A DNA stretch of 17,010 nucleotides from an uncultured Phycisphaerales bacterium (GTDB taxonomy: Bacteria > Planctomycetota > Phycisphaerae > Phycisphaerales > SM1A02). A model generated the notes under the pieces. The model saw nothing but the letters and a program-made list of their open reading frames with translations. It had not been told where the DNA came from and did not search any database. The stretch's first letter is position 1; each line of letters starts with the position of its first letter. The stretch is taken from assembly GCA_938084645.1 (NCBI GenBank), contig CALKEP010000069.1, forward strand, positions 1 through 17,010, read 5' to 3'. Shown here piece by piece: positions 369-16,929 of the stretch. The position numbers were made by a program, and so were the translations under genes.

Positions 369-1031
369 TCAGCGTCGACGTCGTCGCGCGCCGACCACGG
401 CGATCGCCGCAAGGACGAGCGGGCCGGGGCCCGGAATGGCCTGGTTGTACCCCTGGACGAACGCATCTCCGACATCGGCGCCGGTGAGGTCGGTGTCGGT
501 GAGGCCGAGGTCCAGAAGGATCGTCGCGAAGTTCTGGGTGATCAGGAGATCCCCCATGACGTCGAAGGTCTGCTCGAGCGGCGACGCGTCGGTGATGCCG
601 ACGGCGAACAACGCACCGAGACCCGTGCCATCGAAGAACGTATCCGAGACCGTGAAGGCCTCGAGCCCTGAGTCGTAGGCGATGTCGAAGTTGCCGAGCG
701 TGATCGATTCGTTGAACGTGATCGTTCCGCGATGGGCGATCGTCCCCGAGAACGAACCGAAGAAATCATCGGTGTCGTACATGAAGTCACTGCCGGCGGC
801 ACCCGCGTACGGCGAGGTGATCGCGAACGCGACCGAATCGGGTCCGAGGTTGCCCGGCGTGATCACGCCCCCGCTCACACCCGTGAGTTCGAGGTCGGTG
901 ACCGAAGCGATGAGCTCGAGGTCGAGGAGAACGCTGGTCTGCCCTCCGACGATCCCAACGAACTCGGCGGACGCGATGCCACTGAGGCTCAACGCTGCAA
1001 TGACAGCGCCTGAAGCGGTCTTGAACTGCAT
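369..1031 (-). CDS. Exported acidic, beta-rich protein with PEP-CTERM-like (IPGPG) C-terminal sorting signal, 220 aa
   Basis: Start moved to ATG 1031 (MQFKTASGAVIAALSLSGIASA, a Sec signal) with AAGGG upstream. The C-terminus AIPGPGPLVLAAIAVVGARRRRR* is a Pro motif + hydrophobic helix + Arg cluster, the exosortase-target architecture. Confidence 0.85.
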   Translation of the reverse strand: MQFKTASGAVIAALSLSGIASAEFVGIVGGQTSVLLDLELIASVTDLELTGVSGGVITPGNLGPDSVAFAITSPYAGAAGSDFMYDTDDFFGSFSGTIAHRGTITFNESITLGNFDIAYDSGLEAFTVSDTFFDGTGLGALFAVGITDASPLEQTFDVMGDLLITQNFATILLDLGLTDTDLTGADVGDAFVQGYNQAIPGPGPLVLAAIAVVGARRRRR

Positions 1032-1218
1032 ATTTGAGGACCCTTTCCCGTTTGTCCTTTTCCACAAATGCCAGCTTCCCTACGGCTGGACGAATGAACT
1101 ATGCCACGTTTTTCGCCCGAAGCAACGCAAGGACGCATCATTTCCCATAAAAATCGTGATTGCCGCCAATGAGCAACTCCGTGGCATCCCCGGTCGAGCA
1201 CCATCGAATCCCGTTCCC
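1032..1218. promoter_or_regulatory. Divergent intergenic/promoter region
   Basis: Non-coding gap between divergent genes, visibly more AT-rich than its flanks (e.g. TTTCCCATAAAAAT). No exact promoter boxes assigned. Confidence 0.45.
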
Positions 1219-2408: not shown

Positions 2409-3167
2409 TTGAACGATCAGGTCATCCCGCCTTCATCAACCGTCGGACAGCGGATCCTCGTCATCGGCGCCGGAGGCGGCATCGGGCGGTCGCTCGTCGC
2501 CCGCCTGGTCACCCGCGGGGTCTCCGTGGTCGGCGCCGCCCGGGACGTCGACGCACTCGGGTCCGTCCCGGGACTCGAATCCCGACATCGGCTCGACGCC
2601 CGCGATCCCGACGCGACGGTCTCGCTCGTCGGGTCCATCCATGAGACGACACCGTTGAATGGAATCGTGAACCTCGCGGGATGCATCTCCCTGAAGCCCG
2701 CCCACATGGTCACCACCGACGAGTGGAACGAGACGATCGCGACCAAGCTCACGACGGCCTTCTCCTGCGTCAAGGCGGCCGGCCGGCACCTGAAGAACGG
2801 CGGAAGCGTCGTGCTCGTCTCGACCGTCGCCGCCGGGACCGGGCTCTCGAATCACGAGGCGATCGCCGCGGCAGGGGCCGGCGTGGAAGGCCTTGCGCGG
2901 GCGGCCGCCGCGACCTACGCGGCACGCGGACTCCGGTTCAACGTCGTCGCACCGGGCCTCGTCGATACACCACTCGCTTCCAAGATCACGGGCAGCGAGC
3001 GAGCCCTGGAGCATTCGCGGAAGATGCACCCCCTCGGACGGATCGGCGTCGCGGAGGACGTGGCCCCCGCCATCGACTGGCTTCTTTCCTCGGATGCGAG
3101 CTGGATCACCGGCCAGACGGTTGGAATCGACGGAGGCCTCGGGTCGCTTCGCGTGCCGGCCTCATGA
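2409..3167 (+). CDS. Short-chain dehydrogenase/reductase, atypical (no YxxxK), 252 aa
   Basis: Rossmann motif GAGGGIG plus VNLAG, LVST, NVVAPGLVDT, HPLGRIG and WITGQTVGIDGG. TTG start with GGAG 7 nt upstream; the stop overlaps the next ATG (ATGA). Confidence 0.9.
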   Translation: MNDQVIPPSSTVGQRILVIGAGGGIGRSLVARLVTRGVSVVGAARDVDALGSVPGLESRHRLDARDPDATVSLVGSIHETTPLNGIVNLAGCISLKPAHMVTTDEWNETIATKLTTAFSCVKAAGRHLKNGGSVVLVSTVAAGTGLSNHEAIAAAGAGVEGLARAAAATYAARGLRFNVVAPGLVDTPLASKITGSERALEHSRKMHPLGRIGVAEDVAPAIDWLLSSDASWITGQTVGIDGGLGSLRVPAS

Positions 3168-5596
3168 ACCTCGAGGAGATCATCCACCGGCTGCCGCCGC
3201 ATCTCGAAGAGCGGGTGCACCGCTTCGCAGACCACGGCCGCGGAGGTGATCTCGTCGTCTGCTGGATTCACCACGCCAATCGGATCGATGAGAACCCGCT
3301 GCTCGAGGTCGCCGCGGAAGCGGCCCGGGCGTTCGAACTTCCGCTCGTGGTCCATGCCGGTTTCGGCGGACGCCACCCGCACGCGAACGATCGGCACACG
3401 CTCTTCATGCTGGAAGGGCTCCGCGAAACGCAGGCCGCCCTGGGGGAACATGGCGTCCGGATGTCCGTGACCCCGCCGCCGCCGGGCACGGGGCCTTCGG
3501 GACTCCGGCGTCTCGCGGCTCGAGCGCGACTGCTGCTGACGGAAGACCAGCCGGTTCGCCCGTGGCCTCGATGGACCGCGGCCATCGCGAGCGCGGTCCC
3601 CGGCGAAGTCGCGCTGGTCGACACCGCCTGCATCGCTCCTGCCCGCTCGATCGCCGGGAACCATGATCGCGCCTTCCGATTCCGGTCGGCGGCGACGAGG
3701 GCCTGGAAGGAACGACTTCACCTGGACTGGCCGAAGGCATCCCTCGAAGCACCGGAGGCGGGGATCGAGGATCTTCCGGATGACACCATCGAGCTCGCGA
3801 ACGTCGATCTCGGCGACCTCGTCGGAGGCTGGGACATCGACCATGCCGTCGGTCCCGTTCCGGACATGCCCGGCGGGATGGCCGCCGCCGATGCGCGATG
3901 GAACACCTTCCTCGAGCATGGATTGAACCGCTACCACCGCCGGAGGAACGACGCCGTCGACGACGACGGCGTGAGCGGGCTCTCTCCATACCTGCACCAC
4001 GGAATGATCTCGCCGATGCGGATCGCCCGCGACGCCCACCGCAGCGGCGGCGAGGGTGGCGAGAAGTTCCTCGACGAGCTGCTCGTCTGGCGCGAACTCG
4101 CCCATCACTTCTGCCTGAATCACGCCGGCCACGACTCTCTCGATGCGTTGCCGGCCTGGGCGCGGAAGACCCTCGAGCATCACCGCCGGGACGAACGTCC
4201 GCACCGCCGGTCCTGGGAGACGCTGGCGCGAGGACGAACCGGTGATCGACTCTGGGATCTCGCCCAGGAGTCGCTGAAGCGAAGAGGCAGACTGCACAAC
4301 AACGTGCGAATGACCTGGGGCAAGATGCTGCTCGAGTGGACGTCATCGCCGGAGGAGGCGCTCGACCGCCTCCTGGATCTGAACGATCGATATGCACTCG
4401 ACGGTTCCGACGCCAACTCCATCGGCGGCCTGCTCTGGTGCCTCGGCCTCTTCGACCGGGCCTTCGAGCCGGAACGACCGATCGGAGGGACGATCCGGGC
4501 GCGGGACTCGAGGGATCACGCGAAGCGAATCGACCTCGACCGGTACCGATCGGTGGTCCATGGAGGCATCCGTCGCCAGTCGGCACTCGTCATCGGCGCC
4601 GGCATCGCCGGCTCGCAGGCGGCCCGGATCCTGCACGACCACGGCCACGCCGTCACCGTCATCGACAAGAGCCGAGGTCCCGGTGGTCGGTCCAGCAGTC
4701 GCCGCGGCGAAGGCACGCGTCACGACCACGGTTGCCAGGTGCTTCGACTGCGAGGCGCCGCGCTCCGACGATCGGCCGAAAGCTGGGAGGAGGATGGCGT
4801 CATCGCGCGATGGAACCCGCGAGTCCTCCTGGATGGCTCGGTGAGTCCGCGCCCTCGGGAGCCTTGGTTCGTCGGAACCCCGGGGATGAACGAACTCGTC
4901 CGACACCTGCAGCGCGATCTCGACGTCGACTTCGGCCGACGGGCGACCCGCCTGGAGAGGACCGCCGCGGGTTGGACCGCGTTCGACGAGGAAGACATGA
5001 AAATCGGCACGGGCGACCGCGTCATCATCGCCGTGCCGGCCCCGCAGGCGGTCAGCCTCCTTCGCACCGCCGGCATCGACACCGATCCGCTCGACGCGGT
5101 CCGTTTCGATCCGACCTGGACGCTGCTCCTCGACGGCATCGACCGGGATCCCGGTTTCGACGTCGCGGTCGATCCAAGCCCCGAGATCCGCTGGATGGCC
5201 CGCGAAGCCTCTCGTCCCGATCGCGCCGAGGCGGGCTGCTGGACCGTCAACGCCACTCCCGAATGGTCGCGAGCGAACCTTGAAGCGGATCCGGACGTCG
5301 TCGAAACGCGACTCCGGATGGCCGCCGCCGCGGTGCTCGGCGTTCCGATCGATCGCCCCGGCAAGGTTCATCGGTGGCGGTACGGACTCGTCGAATCACC
5401 CCTGGGCGAACCCATCCACGTCGACCCGTCGAGTGGTGCGATCGCCTGCGGCGACTGGTGCCTCGGCGGACGCATCGAGCACGCGTTCCAGAGCGGTGCG
5501 GCGGCCGCGGGCAGCCTGCTTCGAGATCCGACGTTCGCCTCACCCCGATCGAACGACGCCCCCGAGCACGGCCTGTTCGCGGAAATCTCGGAATGA
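3164..5596 (+). CDS. Fusion protein: class II CPD photolyase-like domain + renalase-like (COG3380) FAD oxidoreductase, 810 aa
   Basis: Start at ATG 3164 (ATGA overlap with the SDR). The N-part has [51 protein letters not shown] and [13 protein letters not shown], all class II-type. The C-part (from ~4570) has [38 protein letters not shown] and [17 protein letters not shown]. One uninterrupted frame. Confidence 0.88.
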
Positions 5597-5976
5597 GTCG
5601 CTCGCCACTCCCACGACGAACCTGCGAATGCTGCGGACGGACCTTCGCCTGGCGTCGAAAATGGGCACGCGACTGGGAGAACGTCCGGTACTGCTCCGAT
5701 CGCTGCCGTCGCTCGGGAACGGGCCCGTCCGATCACCGACTCGAGACGCGCATCCTCGAACGACTCAACGCCCGTTCAAGCGGAAGCACGGCATGTCCAT
5801 CGGAGATCGCACGAGCCGTCGATCCCGCCGCCTGGCGGGAACACCTGGAACCCGTTCGACGCGCCGCTCGACGGCTCGTCGCGTCCGGCCGGCTCGAGAT
5901 TCTGCAGAACGGACGCCCCGTCGATCCGGACACCGCGCGGGGCCCGATCCGACTCCGACTCGTCCGCGATCGATGA
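5593..5976 (+). CDS. DUF2256 (Cys zinc-ribbon-like) + DUF3253 fusion protein, 127 aa
   Basis: ATG 5593 overlaps the upstream stop. N-part [34 protein letters not shown] fits DUF2256; C-part [11 protein letters not shown]...[15 protein letters not shown]...ILQNG.PVDP...RGPIRLR fits DUF3253. Confidence 0.88.
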
Positions 5977-6073
5977 ATCCGACCGAAGGCAGGATTCGAA
6001 GTTCGGTTGAGAACGCCATCGATGGGGTGGCGGGCCGCGCGACATCGCGATGACATCGAACGGAGATCCAGAC

Positions 6074-6706
6074 ATGATCCACGACGCCCGAACCTGCCGC
6101 GAGATCGATTCCACCACGGACCGCGAGGAAAGACACACCCCCGCTTTCGATCAACCCAGGATCGAGGCCGCCGTCCGGGAGATCCTCCACGCGATCGGTG
6201 AGGATCCGGACCGCGAAGGGCTGATGGACACGCCGCAGCGCGTCGCGAGGGCGTACGGCGAGATGTTCGGGGGACTCGACGAATCCCCCGCCGCACACCT
6301 CGCCCGGCAGTTTCCGCAGGAGGGAAGTGACCCGGTGATGGTCACGGACATTCCCTTCACGAGCATGTGCGAGCACCACCTGCTCCCCTTCACCGGCGTC
6401 GCACACATCGCGTATCAGCCACAACACGGGCGGGTGGTCGGGCTCTCGAAGCTCGCCCGAACCGTCCAGATCCTCGCCCGGCGGCCGCAGCAGCAGGAGC
6501 GGCTCACCCAGCAGATCCGAGCGGCGATCGAGGAGCATCTCGACCCCGCCGGAGTCCTCGTCATGCTCGAAGCGACGCACTCCTGCATGCAGATCCGGGG
6601 GGCGAAGGCCCATGGCGCCGCCATGAAGACCCGCTCCGTCGGAGGCCGCTGGGAACGCGATGCCGCGACACGCCGCGAGATTCAGGAGATGATGGTCGGA
6701 AAGTGA
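6074..6706 (+). CDS. folE: GTP cyclohydrolase I (type IA)
   Basis: Motifs IGEDPDREGLMDTPQRVAR, SMCEHHLLPF, VVGLSKLAR, QERLT and HSCMQIRG with Zn ligands intact. ATG 6074 is preceded by GGAG; alternative ATG at 6050. Confidence 0.96.
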   Translation: MIHDARTCREIDSTTDREERHTPAFDQPRIEAAVREILHAIGEDPDREGLMDTPQRVARAYGEMFGGLDESPAAHLARQFPQEGSDPVMVTDIPFTSMCEHHLLPFTGVAHIAYQPQHGRVVGLSKLARTVQILARRPQQQERLTQQIRAAIEEHLDPAGVLVMLEATHSCMQIRGAKAHGAAMKTRSVGGRWERDAATRREIQEMMVGK

Positions 6707-6731
6707 TTCCGACCCTCTCTCCGGATCGAAC

Positions 6732-7997
6732 ATGTCCTCGGACGCCCCCATCCTGATCATCGGCGCCGGCCTCGCCGGTCTCGCCGCCGGACGCGAGCTC
6801 GACCGGCGGGGAGATCCCTTCCGCATCCTCGAAGCTTCGGCTCGGGTCGGTGGCCGCCTCGGTTCGACGGTCGTCGACGGCATCGTCTGCGACCTCGGTT
6901 TCCAGGTGTCGATGTCCAACTACCGCTCGCTCGAAGCACTGGTGCCTCGAACGTCGCTTCCCCGACGCCCGTTCATTCCGGGGGCGATCGTCTGGACGGG
7001 CACGGATCGGATCCGGGTGGTCGACCCGCGCCGCGCCCCGCTCGGCGCCTTCCAGGCGGTCTTCCGTGGGTTGGCGGGATGGCGGGACCTCCGAGCCGCG
7101 GCGCGGTGCCGCCGAGCCGCCGCCCGCGCGACCTCCGGTGTCGATCCGACCGGCACGGCCGATCGGTTCATCCGGGACGTGGGTTTCAGTGAACGGTTCC
7201 GCGAGTCCTTCCTCCGTCCGTTCTTCGGCGGGGTCTTTCTCGACGAATCGCTGTCGGTCTCGGCGGGGCGATTTCTCAGGACCCTGGATCGGTTCTCGAG
7301 CGGCAACGCGGAACTCCCACGCGGAGGCATGCAGGCGATCGCCGATGCGATGGCCGAACCGATCCTCGATCGGATCGATTTCGGTCGCAGCGTCACGGCC
7401 GTCGACGCGGACTCGGTGGTACTCGACGACGGCGAACGCCTCGAGGCCGGTGGTGTCATTCTCGCGGCGGATCAGGACGCCACGGACCGTCTCCTTGGTG
7501 ACGATCCCCACGTCGCTTCGGAGGGCGAGACCGCTTCACGCTGGTCTTCGACCGTCGCCGTTCACTTCGAGACACCCGAAGCGACGATCCGTGAACCGAT
7601 CATCGTCCTGAACGGAAGCGGAACCGGCGAGGTGAACCTCGTCGCCAGTTCGACCGCGGTGACCGCCGGCGTCGCACCGAAAGGTCGACACAGCCTCACC
7701 GTGAGCCTTCGACCGGGCGGGCCCACCGATCCCGATCAAGCCGGCCTCGAACGGATCGCCCGCGAGGCGGCTTCGATGCTCGACGTGGAAAGCCGGAACT
7801 GGCGACACCTCGCGACGACCGCGATCCGCCGGGCGCTTCCGGTCGGACCACCCCCCGCCTCACCACCACCGACGCCCGACCGAGTGGAGATCGCCGGCGA
7901 CTGGCTTGGCGAGCCGTCCATCGACGCCGCGGTGCGCAGCGGAATCGACGCCGTGAACCGCATGGCCGAATCAACACCCACGGGAATCCGATCATGA
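6732..7997 (+). CDS. FAD-dependent oxidoreductase, flavin amine oxidase/phytoene desaturase-like superfamily, 421 aa
   Basis: IIGAGLAGL, LEASARVGGRL, DLGFQV, FLRPFFGGVFLD, LPRGGMQAI and C-terminal AGDW...SIDAAVRSG. Substrate unknown. Confidence 0.88.
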   Translation: MSSDAPILIIGAGLAGLAAGRELDRRGDPFRILEASARVGGRLGSTVVDGIVCDLGFQVSMSNYRSLEALVPRTSLPRRPFIPGAIVWTGTDRIRVVDPRRAPLGAFQAVFRGLAGWRDLRAAARCRRAAARATSGVDPTGTADRFIRDVGFSERFRESFLRPFFGGVFLDESLSVSAGRFLRTLDRFSSGNAELPRGGMQAIADAMAEPILDRIDFGRSVTAVDADSVVLDDGERLEAGGVILAADQDATDRLLGDDPHVASEGETASRWSSTVAVHFETPEATIREPIIVLNGSGTGEVNLVASSTAVTAGVAPKGRHSLTVSLRPGGPTDPDQAGLERIAREAASMLDVESRNWRHLATTAIRRALPVGPPPASPPPTPDRVEIAGDWLGEPSIDAAVRSGIDAVNRMAESTPTGIRS

Positions 7998-9388
7998 CCT
8001 CGAGTCGACGGACCATCGCATGGCTTCGCGGCGATCTCCGCCTCGACGACAACCCCGCCCTGGCCGAGGCCCATGCACGGGGCACGGATGGATGCACCGC
8101 GGTGTATCTCCTCGACGACGCCTTCTGGTCGAAGCATCACTGGGGCCCGGCCCGACGCGGGATGAGCCTTCGGGCGGTCGCGGCCATGCGGCCGAGACTC
8201 GCCGACGCCGGGATCGATCTGCGCATCCTGACCACCGCCACGAGATCCGCGGAAGACGTGATCGCCGACGCCTGCCGCGCGTCCGGCGCGACCGAAGTCC
8301 ACGCGAACCGGGAGTTCGGCGTGAACGAACATCGTCGCGACGAGGTGGTCGCGAATCGACTCGCCGAGGCGAACGTCGATTTCCGCCGTCATCACGATCA
8401 GACCATCCTGCCGGTCGAAGAGATTCGCTCCGGCGCCGGGACCCCCTACACCGTCTTCACACCGTTCAAGAAGAAGTGGCTCAAGCTTCTCGAAACGTCG
8501 GGGGCTCCCGTCCCGATCGAACCCCCCGGGCCGCCGGTCTCACCGACGGCCGACGCACGCTTCGTCGATGAGATCGATCTCGATGCCGCGCTTCGCGACG
8601 TGCCCGAATCGGCGTTCGAGGCCGGCGAAGCAGAACCACGCCGACGGCTCGAGGCGTTTCTCGATGGCCCCGTGGAACGCTATCACGACGACCGCGACCC
8701 ACCGTCGCTCGACGGGACCAGCACGCTTTCCCCGTGGCTCGCCTGCGGCTCGATCTCCCCGCGACGGATTCTCCGGATGCTGACGGATCGCTTCGGAGAG
8801 GATCCAGCGTCCTGGCAGGAGGGACCGGCGACGTGGTTGAGCGAGTTGATCTGGCGCGAGTTCTACCGCCACGTGATGGACGGCATCCCCAAACTCTCCA
8901 TGGACCGGCCGCTCCACGGCTGGACCGACCGCGTCGAATGGCGGGATGACGAGGCCGGATTCACCGCATGGTGCGACGGACGAACCGGGATCGCGATCGT
9001 CGACGCCGGCATGCGACAGATGGCGGCGACGGGATGGATGCACAATCGCGTCCGCATGATCACCGCGACGTTTCTGGCGAAGCACCTCCTGATCGACTGG
9101 CGCCGAGGCGAGCGTTTCTTCATGCACCAGCTCGTCGACGGCGACTTTCCCAGCAACAACGGCGGCTGGCAGTGGGCCGCCTCGACCGGAACCGACGCCG
9201 CCCCCTACTTCCGGATCTTCAATCCCGATCGTCAGGCCGAACGCTTCGATCCCGAGGCGACCTACATCCGGCGATGGGTTCCGGAGTACGACGGCCCCGG
9301 ATCGATGAAGCCGATCGTCGACCTCAAGGCGGCGCGGGTCCGTGCGATCGAAACCTTCAAGTCCGCGAAGAACGCCGTGACGGCCTGA
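7994..9388 (+). CDS. phrB: Deoxyribodipyrimidine photolyase, class I CPD, 464 aa
   Basis: WLRGDLRLDDNPAL, YTVFTPFKK, GTSTLSPWL, WLSELIWREFYRH, GWMHNRVRMI and NNGGWQWAASTGTDAAPYFRIFNP closely follow E. coli PhrB. Trp-triad equivalents (RVEW, LIDW, GGWQW) are present. Confidence 0.95.
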   Translation: MTSSRRTIAWLRGDLRLDDNPALAEAHARGTDGCTAVYLLDDAFWSKHHWGPARRGMSLRAVAAMRPRLADAGIDLRILTTATRSAEDVIADACRASGATEVHANREFGVNEHRRDEVVANRLAEANVDFRRHHDQTILPVEEIRSGAGTPYTVFTPFKKKWLKLLETSGAPVPIEPPGPPVSPTADARFVDEIDLDAALRDVPESAFEAGEAEPRRRLEAFLDGPVERYHDDRDPPSLDGTSTLSPWLACGSISPRRILRMLTDRFGEDPASWQEGPATWLSELIWREFYRHVMDGIPKLSMDRPLHGWTDRVEWRDDEAGFTAWCDGRTGIAIVDAGMRQMAATGWMHNRVRMITATFLAKHLLIDWRRGERFFMHQLVDGDFPSNNGGWQWAASTGTDAAPYFRIFNPDRQAERFDPEATYIRRWVPEYDGPGSMKPIVDLKAARVRAIETFKSAKNAVTA

Positions 9389-9394
9389 GGAGCC

Positions 9395-11245
9395 TCAGAG
9401 ATCTCCGGTGACCTCGGGCACGAGCTGGAAGACCAGCACCCGATCGACCGCGGTCACCACCAGCCGCTCGCCCGACGAATCAAAACACGCGTTCGAGATC
9501 CATCGCTCGTCCGGCACGAGGGTGCGGATGAGGGCCCCGTCCGCTGACACGACGTGCACGCCCTTGCCAGTGAGCAGCACGGCGCTGTCGGAGGCCATCG
9601 CCATCCCGTCCGACCCGAGCGGGAAGAACATCCGACGCGGGCCGAGGGCGCCGCCGGGGCCGATGGCGAACTCGAAGGTCCGCCCGCCATCCAGATCGGC
9701 GACGTAGAGCCGGCTTCCGTCCGGTCGGCCGACGATGCCGTTGGGACGCTCGAAGCCGGTCGCCGCGATCTCACAGGTACCGTCGGGGTCGAGCCGGTGG
9801 ACGTCCGCCCGCAGCGGCTTCCGTCCGGACGCGAACCAGGGCCTCCGATAGAAGGGATCGGTGAACCAGATCCGTCCCGACGGCCCGACCCAGAGATCAT
9901 TGGGGCCGTTGAACGGACTCGTCCCGCCCGAGGCGAGGACTTCGACGCTCCCATCGTCATCCCACGCCACGAGTTCGTTCTCGGCTTCCGCGCATCCGAC
10001 GAGCCGGCCATCGGCGGCGACCGCCAGTCCGTTCGCTCGCCTTGCTTCGAACGGCATCACCGACACGTCCCCGTCGACGCCGATGCGGACGATCCGATCG
10101 CGTGGCTGATCCGTCACCAGCAGATCCCCCTCCGGAAGAAACACCGGGCCCTCCGAGAATTCGAATCCCTCGACCAGCACCGCCGCCGGACCGACCCGGG
10201 CCCACGCCGGATCGGCCGCGAGCGGAATTCGTCGGGTCCGTCCGACTTCGGTCCCGGATGGAATCTCGTGAAATCGCATCCATCCATCGATGGTGCCGTC
10301 CGCGAGTCGCATGGATCCGTTGAAACCGAGGACGCTCGCACAACTCGCGAGTGCGTCGGCATCGGCACCGGGCGACGCTCCACCCTGCACGAGCACCGTC
10401 ACCTCGCGTCGTGCCTCCAAGGGCCTGCCCGTCCGCGGGTCCAGAAGATGACTCAATCGCACGATCTCGCCATCCCGCTCCACTTCGAGAAACTGCTCGA
10501 CGTCACCACTGGTCGCGATCGCACCGTTCTCCAGCAGCACCACTTCGTCCTCGTCGCCCTCGACGGTCCGAATCCGCACTCGCCATCCGGCCGATCCGGG
10601 CGGCGGAAAGCCCGCGACGAGATCGCCACCGACGTCGACGAGGGCACGAACCAATCCTCGAGCCCGGAGCACCGCGAGCGCCGCGTCAGCCGCCATGCCC
10701 TTTCCGATCCCGCCGAAGTCGAGCCGAAGTCCCGCCGTTCGACAACGCAACGTGCCGGCTTCCCGATCGAACTCGATTTTCTCGATGCCGACCACGTCGT
10801 CGGCGAACTCGACACTCGCCCGAGATGGCGGAACGCCATCTCGACGAGCCGATCGCCAGAGCTGGGTGAGCGGACCGATCGTGGGATCGAACGCACCGCC
10901 ACTCCGTCGATTCCAGTGGATGGAACGCCGCAGGGCCTCGGCCAGATCGGGGGACACCCGGACCGTTTCGTCGACCCGTTCGACGAGCCGCATCGCCTCG
11001 CTCCGAGGTCGATAGTCACTCAGCACGTCCTCGATCTCGGCCATTCGCGCGAAGGCGGCCTTGGTCGCCGCGTATCCGGTCGCTTCGTCCGGCGCGTAGA
11101 CCTGGATGGTGGCGGGCGTGCCCATCACCACCCGACGATCGACCACCCGGACTTCGGGCCCGACGGCGGATGCCGCCGGGACGAACCATGGCGGGAGAAT
11201 CACGGCGGCGAGCATCGCGGCGGCGCGAACGATTTCGAAGTTCAT
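9395..11245 (-). CDS. apbE: Fusion: ApbE-family FAD:protein FMN transferase + SMP-30/gluconolactonase (SGL) beta-propeller, with signal peptide, 616 aa
   Basis: ATG 11245 overlaps the upstream TGA; signal peptide ends AASA. ApbE motifs: VMGT, GAFDPTIGPL, LDFGGIGKG, DVGGD, ATSGD, HLLDPRTG, ADALAS. SGL motifs from ~10190 down: FSEGPVF, ANGLA, FNGPNDL, IWFTDP, RPNGI, LYVAD, SDGMA. Confidence 0.88.
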   Translation of the reverse strand: MNFEIVRAAAMLAAVILPPWFVPAASAVGPEVRVVDRRVVMGTPATIQVYAPDEATGYAATKAAFARMAEIEDVLSDYRPRSEAMRLVERVDETVRVSPDLAEALRRSIHWNRRSGGAFDPTIGPLTQLWRSARRDGVPPSRASVEFADDVVGIEKIEFDREAGTLRCRTAGLRLDFGGIGKGMAADAALAVLRARGLVRALVDVGGDLVAGFPPPGSAGWRVRIRTVEGDEDEVVLLENGAIATSGDVEQFLEVERDGEIVRLSHLLDPRTGRPLEARREVTVLVQGGASPGADADALASCASVLGFNGSMRLADGTIDGWMRFHEIPSGTEVGRTRRIPLAADPAWARVGPAAVLVEGFEFSEGPVFLPEGDLLVTDQPRDRIVRIGVDGDVSVMPFEARRANGLAVAADGRLVGCAEAENELVAWDDDGSVEVLASGGTSPFNGPNDLWVGPSGRIWFTDPFYRRPWFASGRKPLRADVHRLDPDGTCEIAATGFERPNGIVGRPDGSRLYVADLDGGRTFEFAIGPGGALGPRRMFFPLGSDGMAMASDSAVLLTGKGVHVVSADGALIRTLVPDERWISNACFDSSGERLVVTAVDRVLVFQLVPEVTGDL

Positions 11246-12195
11246 GACCGGAATCGATCGCACTCTCGATACGCCTCGATGAGCCGGTCCACCCCGTCCT
11301 TTCCGCCGAGACTCAGTCCGTGTTCCATGCCCACGATTCCCTTGAATCCGCGGCGGTGGAGGTGACGGAAGACGTTGCGATAGTCGATCTCCCCGGTCGT
11401 CGGCTCGCGACGGCCGGGATTGTCACCGACCTGGAAGTAGGCGATCTCGCTCCACGCCTGGTCCATGTAGGGAATGAGATTCCCCTCGGTGATCTGCTGG
11501 TGGTAGAGATCGTTCAGGATCTTGCAGCTCGGACTGCCCACCGCTTCGCAGATCATGAACGCCTGTGGGATCTCGGTCAGGAACAACCCCGAGTGATCCC
11601 GGCGATTCAAGGGCTCGAGCACCATCACCAGATCGTGCGGCTCGAGAATCGCGGCACATCGCTTGAGGTTCTCGATCACGTTGGCCGTCTGAAAATCCCA
11701 CGAATCGGACAGGCCGTACCGGCCCGGGACCACGGTCATCCAACGCGCCCCGCACCGCTTGGCGATGTCGACCGCCTTCCTCATCTTCGATTCCAACCTG
11801 GCCGTCATGGCCGGATCGCGCTTGACGAAGGTCTCCGCACCGAAATCCCCCTCGGCCACGAACACGCCCATCTCGATGTCCAACCGACGCATCGCTTCCC
11901 CAAGCCGCTTCTGCTCCGCATCGGAACGCCCCGGCATCCCGTTGTCTTCCCATGCCCGGAATCCGTGATCGTGGGCGAACTCGAGCTGGTCCACCAGATC
12001 GTTCCCGCTCTTGGCGTTGAACATGCCGAAGTGCGGCGCGTATTTCAGATTGAATTCCGCCGCGGGTGGCACCGCGACATCGCCGACCGCGACCCCGGTC
12101 GCCAGTCCGGCCACCGTCGCCCCGCCCGCCGCGCCGAGAAAGGCCCGCCGTTCGATCCCGCCCGCTTCAGTCCCCGCTGAATCGATTCCGCTCAT
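11242..12195 (-). CDS. Tat-exported hydroxypyruvate isomerase (Hyi)-like TIM-barrel protein, 317 aa
   Basis: ATG 12195 with AAGGAG RBS; Tat signal ERRAFLGAAGG; motifs LEPLN, DLYHQQITEGNLI, QVGDNPGRREPTTGEIDY and GMEH. Confidence 0.9.
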   Translation of the reverse strand: MSGIDSAGTEAGGIERRAFLGAAGGATVAGLATGVAVGDVAVPPAAEFNLKYAPHFGMFNAKSGNDLVDQLEFAHDHGFRAWEDNGMPGRSDAEQKRLGEAMRRLDIEMGVFVAEGDFGAETFVKRDPAMTARLESKMRKAVDIAKRCGARWMTVVPGRYGLSDSWDFQTANVIENLKRCAAILEPHDLVMVLEPLNRRDHSGLFLTEIPQAFMICEAVGSPSCKILNDLYHQQITEGNLIPYMDQAWSEIAYFQVGDNPGRREPTTGEIDYRNVFRHLHRRGFKGIVGMEHGLSLGGKDGVDRLIEAYRECDRFRS

Positions 12196-12223
12196 GTCGT
12201 TCGCTCCTTGGTCCGGCTCGCTC

Positions 12224-13537
12224 TCATGCGTCGGTCGGACGGACGTCATCGCTCCGGTTCATCCTGGTCTGGCCGGGGATCGGCACCGGCGGCGTCGGCA
12301 TGTCCGTGAAGTCAGCCAGGTCGGGCATGAGATCCTGGTCGCTGTTCAAGGCTTCCTCGAAGGTGATCACCTTCCCGGTGTAGGCCGCCTCACGACCCAT
12401 GATCGCGGTGAGCGTGCTCTCCGCGATCCGCTGCCCTTCGTTGAGGTAGTCGCCGGTCCCCCGGATGGAGGCCTGCAGATCCATGTGTTCCTGGACGTAG
12501 GGACTCCGCTGCGGACCCTTGAATCTCCATGCGTTCGGGCCCGTCAGGACCGCACGCCCGCTGGTGAGCGTCGCCGTGCCGTCGGCGCCCGTGATGACCT
12601 CCTCCACCCGGCCGTCGGTTCCGGCCTGCTGCCGGCACATGCTCATCGCGAATCGATCGTCGGGATATCGATACTCCAGCCCGAAGTGATCGAAGATGTG
12701 CCCGTACTCGTCGGACGTCCGCGACTGGCGACCACCCACACCGAAGACCTCGGTCGGCGGCGACTGGAAGGCCCAGTTGATCGCGTCGAGGTTGTGCACG
12801 TGCTGCTCGACGATGTGATCACCGGAGAGCCAGGTGTAGTAGAGCCAGTTCCGGATCTGGTTCTCGGCCTCGCTCCGGTCCGGCTCGGCCGCGACGTTCC
12901 AGAGGCTTCCCATGTTCCAGTAGCACCGAGCCGCAAGGAGCCGCCCGATATCACCCCGGTGCAGTCGTTCCATCGCTTCCAGGTAGCACTGCTCGTGCCG
13001 ACGCTGCGTACCCGCGACCACCGAGAGCTTCCGGTCGTTGGCGGCCGCGGCGGCCTCCATCACGGTGCGGATCCCGGTCGCGTCGACCGCCACCGGCTTC
13101 TCCATGAAGACGTGCTTGCCGGCCTCCACCGCCGCCGCGAAGTGCTGCGGACGGAAGCCGGGCGGCGTCGCGAGGATCACCACGTCGCAATCGGTGCCGA
13201 TCACCTTCTTGAACGCGTCGAACCCCGTGAACTGCCTCGACTCGGGAACATCCACCCGGGCCTCGTCCCGCTTGCGCAGGTTGCCGAGACTGCTCTGGAG
13301 GCGGTCGGGAAAGAGGTCGCCCATCGCGTGGATCCGCACGTCCGGTCCCGCTTCGAGCGCGTTGACCGCCGCACCGGACCCCCGGCCTCCGCATCCGATG
13401 AGGCCGACGTTGATGACGTCCTCGCGGCCGAGCCGGGATCCCAGGATCGTCGGCGCGGCGGAGACGATCGTGGGAACGGTGGCGGCGAGTCCGACGGCGC
13501 GGACGAAGTCACGTCGATCAAGATTCTGGTCGTTCAT
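12224..13537 (-). CDS. Tat-exported Gfo/Idh/MocA oxidoreductase, 437 aa
   Basis: Tat signal DRRDFV; GLIGCGGRGSGA; ILATPPGFR; HVFMEKP; WLSGDHIVEQHVHNLD; GGAG RBS. Confidence 0.93.
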   Translation of the reverse strand: MNDQNLDRRDFVRAVGLAATVPTIVSAAPTILGSRLGREDVINVGLIGCGGRGSGAAVNALEAGPDVRIHAMGDLFPDRLQSSLGNLRKRDEARVDVPESRQFTGFDAFKKVIGTDCDVVILATPPGFRPQHFAAAVEAGKHVFMEKPVAVDATGIRTVMEAAAAANDRKLSVVAGTQRRHEQCYLEAMERLHRGDIGRLLAARCYWNMGSLWNVAAEPDRSEAENQIRNWLYYTWLSGDHIVEQHVHNLDAINWAFQSPPTEVFGVGGRQSRTSDEYGHIFDHFGLEYRYPDDRFAMSMCRQQAGTDGRVEEVITGADGTATLTSGRAVLTGPNAWRFKGPQRSPYVQEHMDLQASIRGTGDYLNEGQRIAESTLTAIMGREAAYTGKVITFEEALNSDQDLMPDLADFTDMPTPPVPIPGQTRMNRSDDVRPTDA

Positions 13538-13597: not shown

Positions 13598-14497
13598 CTA
13601 CTCGGCGGAGTCCCGGATCCGGTCCATTCGCGTCGCCACGTCGGTCAGCCAGGCACGATCGCCCCCACCGATCTCCGCGGTCATCCATCCATCGAATCCG
13701 ATCTCACGCAAGGCGGTCATCACGGCGGGCCAGTCGCAGTCGCCTTCGAGCAGGAGGACGTCGAAGCCGGCCCAACGTCCTTCCTTGTTGAGTTTCTCGC
13801 GGCTGTACTCCTTCGCGTCGATCTTCATGATCCGCGGGCCGAGGACCCGGATCCACTGTTCGGGCCAGCCGTAGGCCACGAGGTTGCCGACATCGAGATA
13901 CCACCCGACCCGGTCGCTTTCGAACGAGTCGACGTACTCCGCGGCCTCCCGCGGACTCAGCAGGAAGTTGTTCCAGACGTTCTCGAACGCGATGTCGATT
14001 CCCGCCGCCTCGGCGTCCGGGATCACCTTGAGCAGTTCGGTCCGGCTCAGTCGCCAGGCGTCGTCGTAGGCGCGGTTCTTTCCGACCACCGCCGGAACCA
14101 CCAGCACCGAGGTGGCCCCGTAGGCCTTCGCGTCCGAGATCGCCTCCCGGATCGCCGCGACGCACTTCGCCCGCACCTCCGGGTTCGAGTCGTTGAGCGG
14201 ACTCTTCCAATGTTCGCTGCAGACCACGCCGTGCACCGGAAGCCCCGTGGCCTTCGACGCCGCCACGACCTCTTCGACGCTCCACGCGTTGGGACTCGGC
14301 AACTCGACACCGTCGTAACCGAGCGACCGGAGCAGTCGGAACTTCTCTTCGAGGGTGTCCCCCTCCTGGACCATCTCGATCTTGACCGCCTTCTTCATCG
14401 CCGGGCTCACGAGGGGGCCAGAGGCCGCATGCGTCGACGCGGCCGACACGAGAAGCATGCAGAAGAGACCGATGACCGGAATGGTGAACTGAAGCAT
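13598..14497 (-). CDS. Exported sugar-phosphate isomerase/epimerase (xylose isomerase-like TIM barrel), 299 aa
   Basis: Sec-like signal peptide; GYDGVEL, VLVVP, FENVWNNFL, YLDVGN, DAKEY, EGDCDW and GWMTAE; GGAG RBS. Confidence 0.9.
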   Translation of the reverse strand: MLQFTIPVIGLFCMLLVSAASTHAASGPLVSPAMKKAVKIEMVQEGDTLEEKFRLLRSLGYDGVELPSPNAWSVEEVVAASKATGLPVHGVVCSEHWKSPLNDSNPEVRAKCVAAIREAISDAKAYGATSVLVVPAVVGKNRAYDDAWRLSRTELLKVIPDAEAAGIDIAFENVWNNFLLSPREAAEYVDSFESDRVGWYLDVGNLVAYGWPEQWIRVLGPRIMKIDAKEYSREKLNKEGRWAGFDVLLLEGDCDWPAVMTALREIGFDGWMTAEIGGGDRAWLTDVATRMDRIRDSAE

Positions 14498-14549: not shown

Positions 14550-15860
14550 TCAACTGAACTTGTAGACGCCTGGCTGCGGGATTTCGAGCGGCGGCATCGG
14601 TCCGAACTTCGGATCCTGCGGGACGATCTCCTTCTGGGAGTTCATGATCTCGTCCCAGGTGATCGTCCGCCCGCTGTAACCGGCCTCCCGGCCGAGGATG
14701 CCCATCGCCACCGACTGGGTCATCCAGTCGCCGTCGTTCAAGACCTCGCCGTCCCGGATCGCCTTGAAGAGCTCGTTGTGCTCGGTCTGGTACATGTTGG
14801 GCGTTCCGCCCTTGTACCGGAACTCCTTGGACCCGTCCGCGAACTTGAGGTTCGACTGCCGCGGCGCCCAGCCGTTCACGAATCCGATCCCCTTGGTGCC
14901 GGCGATCCAGTCGGTGTTGTCGTTCGAGCAGTTGGGAACCTGACGGCAGGTGAGGAATCCGCGTGCGCCGTTGTCCCACTCGTAGACCACCGCGAAGTGA
15001 TCGAAGATGTCGCCTCGCTCCGCGCCTTCGCGGAGACCGCGGCCGCCGAGGGCGGTCGCCTTCGCCGGCGGCCGATTCCCCATCGCCCAGTTCATCTTGT
15101 CGACGCTGTGCACCGCCTGCTCCACGATGATGTCGCCGGAGAGCCAGTTCATGTGCTGCCAGTTTCGAAGCTGGAAGTCCATGTCGGTCATGTCGGGCGT
15201 TCGGGCCCGGGTGCCCAGCGGACCGGTGTGATAGGTCGAGTGCACGGACTCGATCTCGCCGAGCGCGCCGTCGTTGATCTCGCCGTAGACCGCGCGTTCC
15301 GGCATGGCGTAACGCCAGCAGAAGCCGGACATCAACTGGGTCCCCTGGGCCTTCGCCTTCTTCGACGTCTCCATGACCTTCCGAAGCCCCGGCATGTCCG
15401 TGGCCATGGGCTTCTCGCAGAAGACGTGCTTCCCGGCCCCGACCGCCTTCTCGAGATGGTCGGGGCGGAATCCCGGAGGTGTCGCGAGGATCACCACGTC
15501 GACCCCGCTGTCCAGGACCTTGTCGATGGCGTCGAAGCCCACGAATCGACGCTCGTCTCCGACCATGACGCGGGTTCCATGCTGATTCTTGAGGCCGTTG
15601 AAGCTGTTGTTCAGACGATCCTCGTAGACGTCACCCATGGCCCAGAGCATCACGCCCGGATCCGCGTTGATCGCCTGGTTCGCCGCGCCGGTACCGCGGC
15701 CGCCGCACCCGACCAACCCAACCTTGATGCGGTCACTCGCGGCGGCGGCGCCCCAGACCGGCATCGCGAGCCCGGTCGCACCGACCGCAGCGGCGGTCTT
15801 CACGAATGCACGGCGATCGACGCCGTCGCTGGAGTTGGCTTCGGACTTGGGATCATTCAT
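14550..15860 (-). CDS. Tat-exported Gfo/Idh/MocA oxidoreductase, 436 aa (paralogue of 12224..13537)
   Basis: Start moved to ATG 15860 (AGGAG RBS); Tat signal DRRAFV; GLVGCGGRGTGA; ILATPPGFR; HVFCEKP; WLSGDIIVEQAVHSVD. Confidence 0.93.
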   Translation of the reverse strand: MNDPKSEANSSDGVDRRAFVKTAAAVGATGLAMPVWGAAAASDRIKVGLVGCGGRGTGAANQAINADPGVMLWAMGDVYEDRLNNSFNGLKNQHGTRVMVGDERRFVGFDAIDKVLDSGVDVVILATPPGFRPDHLEKAVGAGKHVFCEKPMATDMPGLRKVMETSKKAKAQGTQLMSGFCWRYAMPERAVYGEINDGALGEIESVHSTYHTGPLGTRARTPDMTDMDFQLRNWQHMNWLSGDIIVEQAVHSVDKMNWAMGNRPPAKATALGGRGLREGAERGDIFDHFAVVYEWDNGARGFLTCRQVPNCSNDNTDWIAGTKGIGFVNGWAPRQSNLKFADGSKEFRYKGGTPNMYQTEHNELFKAIRDGEVLNDGDWMTQSVAMGILGREAGYSGRTITWDEIMNSQKEIVPQDPKFGPMPPLEIPQPGVYKFS

Positions 15861-15930: not shown

Positions 15931-16929
15931 TCAGGGGTCGGCGACCAGCCGGACACCGACCCAGTCGTTGGAGGCGAGCCACCACGGGCTCTTGGGAATC
16001 TGAGGATCGTCGGCGTTCCAGTCGGTGGTGAACGGGATCCGATAGTCGAGGCCGACATCGGCGACGGGGTCGATGAACGAACCGCCCATGACGACCCAGG
16101 TTCCATCCGGCGCGACGGCGTATTCGCTCAAGTTGCCCCAGATGTCGTGGAGTCCGTTGGCATCGACCGGCTTCGAACCGACCGCATGCGTGGAGTACTC
16201 GGCGTTCTCCTCGAACCACCCGGACGCGATCCGGGCATCCGCGTCGGCGATGCCGCTCGATTCCAGCAGGTATCGCATCTCGGCTTCGGTCGGGACCCTG
16301 ATCTTCCGGCCGGTCTTGATGGAGAGCCACTCGACGAACCGTTCGACGGCCGCGGGGCTCGCACTCAACAACGCATATCCAGCATGGCCGTAGCCCCGAT
16401 CCGCGAGGACGTAGGGCTTGCTCGGGCGGGTCACGGCGTCGGACGCCTCGGTGCTCTCACCCGCATCCGTATCGAGATTGAAGATGAACGCGTCGTAGAG
16501 ATCCCAGGTCGCCTCGGTGGTGGCGACGTAGAACGATTCGCCGGCTTCGGGAGAGATCGGCTGCATCGTGATCGTGACGCTCGTTCCCGGGACCACCACC
16601 TCGATCGGTTCCAGCTCGACGCGCTTCGCGTCAGCCGAGCCGAGCTTGGCGTCGACCGTGGAATCGGTCGTGGAAGCGGCCGTGGCACCGACCGCAGAAT
16701 CGCCCGAACTGCCTCTTCCTGGCGCTTCCTGCTGACGCATTTCGGTGACGCCCCCCCCATCTTCCGTCGTGGCGGTCACGCATCCCGCGAGCACCGACAC
16801 GCCGGCGAAGGACGCGATCGCCATCATGCCCCGACGCACGCCGGAACGGGCTCGGACCATGGCGGACCGGGGCGACATCGCTCCAAGCCGACGTTCTTGA
16901 CCCAACTCGACGCTTCCCTCGGGATCCAT
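15931..16929 (-). CDS. FGE-sulfatase/SUMF1-domain lipoprotein lacking catalytic cysteines
   Basis: Lipobox LAGC; FGE-domain motifs RVPTEAE, NGLHDIWGNLSEY, MGGSF and VGVRLV, plus DPQIPKSPWW. Start uncertain: 16929 has a well-spaced GGAG, while 16878 or later gives a more normal signal length. Confidence 0.85.
   Translation of the reverse strand: MDPEGSVELGQERRLGAMSPRSAMVRARSGVRRGMMAIASFAGVSVLAGCVTATTEDGGGVTEMRQQEAPGRGSSGDSAVGATAASTTDSTVDAKLGSADAKRVELEPIEVVVPGTSVTITMQPISPEAGESFYVATTEATWDLYDAFIFNLDTDAGESTEASDAVTRPSKPYVLADRGYGHAGYALLSASPAAVERFVEWLSIKTGRKIRVPTEAEMRYLLESSGIADADARIASGWFEENAEYSTHAVGSKPVDANGLHDIWGNLSEYAVAPDGTWVVMGGSFIDPVADVGLDYRIPFTTDWNADDPQIPKSPWWLASNDWVGVRLVADP

Follow-up and report, generated by a model that had tools for sequence, protein, structure and literature searches.

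A predicted ApbE substrate with an FGE fold and a variant flavinylation motif in a Phycisphaerales sugar-dehydrogenase operon

The operon and its FGE-fold lipoprotein

The analysed stretch of DNA (17,010 nucleotides from an uncultured Phycisphaerales bacterium, hereafter the window) carries six genes on the same strand. The first encodes a predicted lipoprotein with the fold of formylglycine-generating enzyme (FGE), and it is followed by two Gfo/Idh/MocA dehydrogenases, two TIM-barrel proteins and a fusion of ApbE with a lactonase-like domain (Table 1). A promoter and terminator scan returned nothing above shuffled sequence, and metatranscriptome contigs from four runs span parts of the operon, such contigs being unable to show transcription or co-transcription. 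At 2681-8000 and 7994-9388 (+), flavin/folate genes that include a photolyase-renalase-like fusion, GTP cyclohydrolase I, an amine oxidase and a DNA photolyase converge on the apbE operon. At the far end of the window, 3-263 and 369-1067 (-) encode two similar secreted proteins with no Pfam match, the complete one of which has a PEP-CTERM-like C-terminus made up of a PGPG motif, a hydrophobic stretch and arginines.

Table 1. Coordinates of the operon genes and protein motifs within the window
Feature	Position	Strand	Remark
Cys-less FGE-fold lipoprotein gene, proposed ApbE substrate	15931..16929	-	start 16929 or 16827
Lipobox Cys, sole Cys in the FGE-fold protein	16780..16782	-	lipoprotein status read by eye
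DSAVGAT, variable linker, rejected site	16681..16701	-	homologue comparison
DAVTRPS, predicted flavinylation motif	16420..16440	-	acceptor Ser codon 16420-16422
DPQIPKSPWW segment, subfamily signature	15979..16008	-	D 153, P 154, P 154, S 146, W 152 of 154
Gfo/Idh/MocA dehydrogenase 1, proposed electron donor	14550..15860	-	twin-arginine-like signal by eye
AP_endonuc_2 TIM barrel, sugar isomerase/epimerase-like	13598..14497	-	
Gfo/Idh/MocA dehydrogenase 2	12224..13537	-	twin-arginine-like signal by eye
Hydroxypyruvate-isomerase-like (Hyi-like) TIM barrel	11242..12249	-	twin-arginine-like signal by eye
ApbE + SMP-30/gluconolactonase fusion	9395..11263	-	ApbE domain 10298-11125; lactonase domain 9449-10159

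Counted from the Met at 16827, the FGE-fold protein contains a single Cys, residue 16, within a lipobox-like LAGC, and translation from this start bears out the original observation that the mature protein has no further Cys. The LAGC is kept in close relatives (read by eye, and indicating predicted export only), which supports the proposed membrane anchoring for the window's clade, whereas many homologues have different N-termini. A Pfam search with the protein itself gave no match at E 0.001, and its homologues match PF03781. The AlphaFold2 model (pLDDT 91) retrieved TvpA (Z 22.1), PvdO (Z 20.4), CarF (Z 19.2) and FGE (Z 16.7) in a structure search, with PorK also among the best matches, and model and search together assign the FGE fold. 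The catalytic FGE CxxxxC after GGS occurs in none of 154 subfamily members; the copper-binding Cys pair is absent from the window protein and from all of these homologues, and the claim that this is not a true formylglycine-generating enzyme therefore holds. A separate, true FGE-like gene with the CxxxxC motif lies on contig C22 of the source genome.

The DPQIPKSPWW segment marks the subfamily and may form a flavin pocket. Its DPQIPKS portion was also considered as a flavin acceptor and rejected: it is never canonical, its Ser is found in only 146 of the 154 members, and it is lost in several paralogues. Four loci (L114, L123, L157 and L159) carry the subfamily gene in tandem, in two or three copies and with neither apbE nor a Gfo gene nearby, and in three of them (L114, L157 and L159) the DP..P..W segment is altered.

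The DAVTRPS site and its homologues

Two heptamers had been pointed out as near-matches to the ApbE motif, and translation places both DAVTRPS and DSAVGAT exactly where they were reported. Against the canonical D-x-x-[ST]-G-A-[ST], given in the accessible text of PMC12052999, DAVTRPS agrees at five of seven positions and is itself not canonical. When the mature protein is shuffled 20,000 times, 49% of the shuffles contain a loose Dxx[ST]xx[ST], and because motifs in the single sequence do not rise above chance, DAVTRPS acquires meaning only through comparison with homologues. Such comparison shows the Asp and the last Ser/Thr to be invariant across 121 homologues. A wider set of 153 loci with the full motif was assembled from the window, its close relatives, a phylum-wide sample, metagenomes and one Parabacteroides record; score and a D/E-P-x-x-P signature served as filters, which removed L100, L120 and, from the 80 metagenome loci, the generic FGE domains. 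Its motif columns read D in 149; A/G in 147; V/I in 130; S/T in 133; R in 104 and G in 25; P in 141 and A in 12; and S/T in 152. The two dropped loci, L100 and L120, are missing the first Asp, keep R-P-[ST] and have apbE less than 400 bases away. One locus (L003:312-992) is alone in carrying Arg as the acceptor (DAVTRPR) in an otherwise intact operon, possibly an assembly error.

The acceptor position is Ser or Thr in 81/81 long subfamily forms and in 82/82 and 120/120 members of further sets, has swapped between the two residues 17 times or more on a FastTree tree from which the motif columns were left out, and is the sole alignment column above 98% Ser/Thr with a balanced mix. The residues around DAVTRPS are conserved equally well, and conservation alone is therefore not decisive. 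In a control set, a similar heptamer was found in 3 of 107 proteins, one of which was a subfamily member that had passed the filter. In the model, DAVTRPS begins where a short helix ends and enters a long loop (pLDDT 69-76). The expected Dxx[ST]xP[ST] form, and the invariant D-x-x-[ST]-x-x-[ST] for which an alignment was suggested as a check, are upheld at the two ends (Asp in 149/153, final Ser/Thr in 152/153) but not at position 4, where Ser/Thr is found in only 133/153. Judged by these alignments, the putative motif is better given as D-[AG]-[VI]-[ST]-(R/G/x)-(P/A)-[ST].

Moreover, the same aligned site is occupied by the canonical Dxx[ST]GA[ST] in 8 of the 153 loci, and among the best 120 relatives of one subfamily member (L140) it is canonical in 119, all from Flavobacteriaceae wherever a name is given. 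GPT and RAT intermediates also occur at this site, and the tree places the G-A motif in two separate branches, one of single-domain and one of NapC-fused proteins. According to the part of PMC12052999 that was available, Gly-to-Ala and Ala-to-Val changes halve flavinylation of a model substrate; Arg-Pro is a larger change than either, and an adapted enzyme would therefore be needed. A rule by which members with the Gly motif use a housekeeping ApbE was tried and discarded: apbE lies within 7 kb in 0/15 Gly-motif loci versus 63/96 others, but this comparison comprises only 3 independent tree pairs (p 0.5), and the rule also conflicts with three Gly-motif genomes in which an ApbE from the dedicated branch (described below) is present but unlinked.

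The statement that the operon lacks a canonical ApbE target was confirmed, with none of the six proteins containing Dxx[ST]GA[ST] or even [ST]GA[ST]. Across homologues, no conserved [ST]GA[ST] was found in the other operon families, where it is scattered over 7/155 Gfo, 2/25 TIM, 3/29 Hyi and 5/78 ApbE proteins.

Linkage of the subfamily to a separate ApbE branch

The ApbE domain of the window matches PF02424 at 214 bits, aligns its Ser/His/Asp triad with that of FmnB (7ESA) and scores 84 of 498 against the NCBIfam equivalog, under the cut-off. Its fusion to SMP-30 recurs in 10 close relatives and was not flagged among 80 phylum-wide loci. The source genome (G000) is 97% complete and a single apbE was found in it. 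No match to the known substrate families FMN_bind, NqrB/RnfD or DUF2271 was obtained there; DUF3570 also gave no match, in a search whose positive control was equally silent. Its six-frame open reading frames contain 43 canonical heptamers, the best-looking of which is antisense to a secretin-like gene. With one apbE and no match to the substrate families searched, this genome resembles the orphan-apbE genomes that, in the accessible text of PMC8238504, make up 4% of genomes.

Among 301 Planctomycetota genomes examined, apbE was present in 90/90 subfamily-positive genomes (E below 1e-40) and in 150/211 others, 18 genomes with weak partial matches being scored negative; because related genomes are not independent, these counts overstate the linkage. 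Of the 106 matches, 80 regions were fetched: apbE is no further than 7 kb from the FGE gene in 53 of them and no further than 1 kb in 50, and the fetched stretch contained no apbE in 27. In the fetched loci apbE is mostly divergent from the FGE gene, and Gfo follows the FGE gene. Among the close relatives, apbE sits 4.8 kb downstream in 11/11 with long enough contigs, the contigs of 4 others stopping earlier. ApbE and FGE domains also occur in one protein of 571 residues (P0346, one cluster member on 3 contigs), which gave no confident fold from its single sequence (pLDDT 34); no such fusion was found among proteins longer than 666 aa.

A tree of 100 ApbE domains groups the linked ApbEs in one branch (support 97) that includes 3/20 unlinked ApbEs. 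The remaining 17/20, of which 7 are encoded close to a protein with the canonical motif, fall outside it together with two second copies. The Tyr of the SGxY motif, present in 20/20 unlinked ApbEs, is replaced in the linked ones. A profile of the linked ApbEs scored at least 320 bits in 66 genomes, 65 of which carry the FGE subfamily (18/19 among genomes outside the profile building). Both a conserved acceptor and co-encoding with apbE, as expected of ApbE substrates, are thus found here. The proposal that ApbE acts on the FGE-fold protein is accordingly retained for DAVTRPS, on the comparative evidence of conservation, canonical exchange, apbE linkage and a dedicated branch, and is given up for DSAVGAT. 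We place good confidence in covalent FMN on the FGE-fold protein, as read from sequence comparison, and the protein likely represents a class of ApbE substrates that is new and uses a variant code.

Proposed electron route, alternatives and known systems

The possible redox partners of the FGE-fold protein were examined through its fusions and neighbours. CxxCH motifs stand N-terminal to the FGE domain in 21/154 members, 14 of which have four, and Pfam identified NapC/NirT in 7 and PSCyt1 in 5 of the scanned proteins. Two further cases are a DUF7133-cytochrome c-ThuA open frame in L096 and a below-threshold cytochrome c' in P0309. A multihaem-cytochrome b561/DUF4405 gene adjoins the FGE gene in 7 loci, and the accessible text of PMC11334425 links DUF4405 cytochromes to flavinylation. 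The locus of Parabacteroides distasonis (L208) holds a set of NapC-FGE, Gfo and TIM genes. In this cultured gut strain the NapC/NirT tetrahaem-FGE fusion (L208:8344-9921) carries DAISGPT and is annotated solely as SUMF1/EgtB/PvdO family. Some fusions are non-redox: a Verrucomicrobiota FG-GAP-like N-terminus, a phosphodiesterase and a transglutaminase. A Gfo/Idh/MocA gene lies within 2 kb of the FGE gene in 107/150 loci, short contigs included, and is absent beside some paralogues. The window operon itself contains no membrane electron conduit, and its FGE-fold protein carries no fused haem domain. A search of the source genome for NapC and multihaem-b561 homologues found none. This genome does encode a cluster of cytochrome b/c genes, a pentahaem protein of the type usual in alternative complex III, two oxidase subunits II and numerous cytochromes of the c type, any of which could serve as the electron acceptor.

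Enzymes of the Gfo family oxidise their substrates with bound NAD(P). In the mechanism that we propose, the operon's own ApbE would transfer FMN from FAD onto the last Ser of DAVTRPS, and the conserved DPQIPKS-WW segment may hold the flavin ring. The exported Gfo enzyme would oxidise a sugar or cyclitol with its bound NAD(P), and the FMN would take hydride from this NAD(P)H and hand single electrons to haems and so to respiration, while the lactonase and the TIM barrels would process the product of sugar oxidation. Overall, it appears fairly probable that the FGE-fold lipoprotein is an FMN-ylated acceptor that takes electrons from the exported sugar dehydrogenase and passes them to c-type haems; for the direction and the partner of electron transfer in particular, we lean towards the proposed arrangement with less assurance. 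By a narrower margin still, we favour a widespread respiratory module in Planctomycetota, Verrucomicrobiota and Bacteroidota, in which a dedicated ApbE branch reads D-x-x-[ST]-R-P-[ST] and flavinylates the FGE domain, the NAD(P)H of Gfo is re-oxidised and electrons reach cytochromes.

An unlikely alternative keeps FMN at DAVTRPS and makes it the catalytic cofactor of a PvdO-like FGE oxidoreductase acting on a keto-sugar intermediate, or lets electrons flow towards the dehydrogenase. PvdO is the closest solved sequence and is required for a periplasmic oxidation, and, according to the available text of PMC6206403, its E. coli product had neither activity nor a cofactor. The W/D/P-rich segment is conserved and could be a substrate site, and the Gfo neighbour missing for some paralogues would suit a catalytic FMN or a reverse flow. 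NapC-type proteins usually withdraw electrons from quinol, which would also agree with the reverse direction. On the other hand, the tight coupling to one Gfo subfamily and the repeated cytochrome fusions fit a relay, and an aerobic heterotroph with oxidases profits from sugar oxidation.

A marginally less probable alternative treats DAVTRPS as a structural or ligand loop in a protein that binds sugar or a non-covalent flavin, with ApbE having another target or only supplying FMN. This reading is consistent with the use of FGE folds as binding modules (TvpA, CarF and PorK being among the best structural matches) and with the loss of the SGxY Tyr in the linked ApbEs, which may point to another ApbE activity. 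Moreover, D-x-x-T-R-P is common to PvdO, which aligns D-x-x-T-R-P-G with Gly at the acceptor position, and the R-P or part of the motif may therefore be an inherited loop of the general fold. The loop reading leaves unexplained, however, the exact canonical motif in Bacteroidota, the tolerance of Ser and Thr only, and the ApbE-FGE fusion, and another ApbE target is disfavoured since no other operon family has a conserved [ST]GA[ST]. Finally, DSAVGAT as a first or second flavinylation site is highly improbable: it offers Asp at position 1, G-A-T at 5-7 and a probably flexible region, but its position 4 is Val, DxxxGA[ST] arises in 4.5% of 20,000 mature-protein shuffles, 12 close relatives are without it, and it is present in only 2/121 homologues, both of the window strain's own protein type.

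If the proposed FMN-ylated relay is correct, some of the orphan-apbE genomes described in the accessible portion of PMC8238504 would gain a substrate, and the ApbE code would extend beyond [ST]GA[ST], with an entire class escaping surveys that rely on the motif. Thousands of proteins now wrongly annotated as FGE/SUMF1 would acquire a function. The relay would also provide a route by which periplasmic dehydrogenases of the NAD(P) type turn over where there is no free nucleotide pool, and by which Planctomycetota, Verrucomicrobiota and Bacteroidota would use an NAD-type enzyme to respire sugars outside the cytoplasm. An ApbE/tag pair that follows a different code could act as an orthogonal flavin tag. 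A literature search, with subscription papers largely outside its coverage, found nothing on flavinylation of FGE folds or on an R-P-[ST] motif, and loci with this system may be listed in the large cluster table of PMC8238504, a source available in part.

Among known systems, the ApbE substrates named in the accessible parts of PMC8238504, PMC11334425 and PMC12052999 comprise FMN_bind of NqrC/RnfG/NosR/PceC, NqrB/RnfD, DUF2271, DUF3570, Flavodoxin_4 and FMN_red. The FGE-fold protein resembles these in its predicted export, apbE neighbour, seven-residue Asp-to-Ser/Thr motif and cytochrome coupling, and its Bacteroidota homologues are canonical. It differs in that the FGE/CLec fold is not among the substrate domains named in those parts, in Arg-Pro for Gly-Ala in most members, in the separate ApbE branch, in the NAD(P)-type dehydrogenase partner and in that flavinylation is here predicted. 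With FGE/SUMF1 (PF03781) the subfamily shares the fold (rmsd 2.6 A over 181 residues), whereas it is without the catalytic Cys pair.

PvdO (PDB 5HHA) is the top PDB sequence match to the family profile (E 6e-30) and shares a Cys-independent periplasmic FGE fold, its own role being redox. In contrast, the window protein scores 18.3 of 500 bits against NF051459 and belongs to a sugar-enzyme operon and not to a pyoverdine context. PvdO may itself bind flavin non-covalently or descend from the FGE subfamily, which could bear on its missing cofactor.

The operon Gfo enzymes share family and a predicted export signal with the Tat-exported Gfo/Idh/MocA proteins (Zymomonas GFOR and the Caulobacter aldose-aldose oxidoreductase) and with the BT2158 glycoside 3-dehydrogenase, and match such PDB enzymes distantly (E about 1e-9 to 1e-11). 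They lie far below the NCBIfam cut-offs (BT2158 models NF058561 at 34-36 of 750 and NF058563 at 22 of 650; IolG at 70 of 355). In GFOR-type enzymes the bound cofactor is recycled by a second sugar, whereas for the Gfo of the window an outside electron acceptor is proposed.
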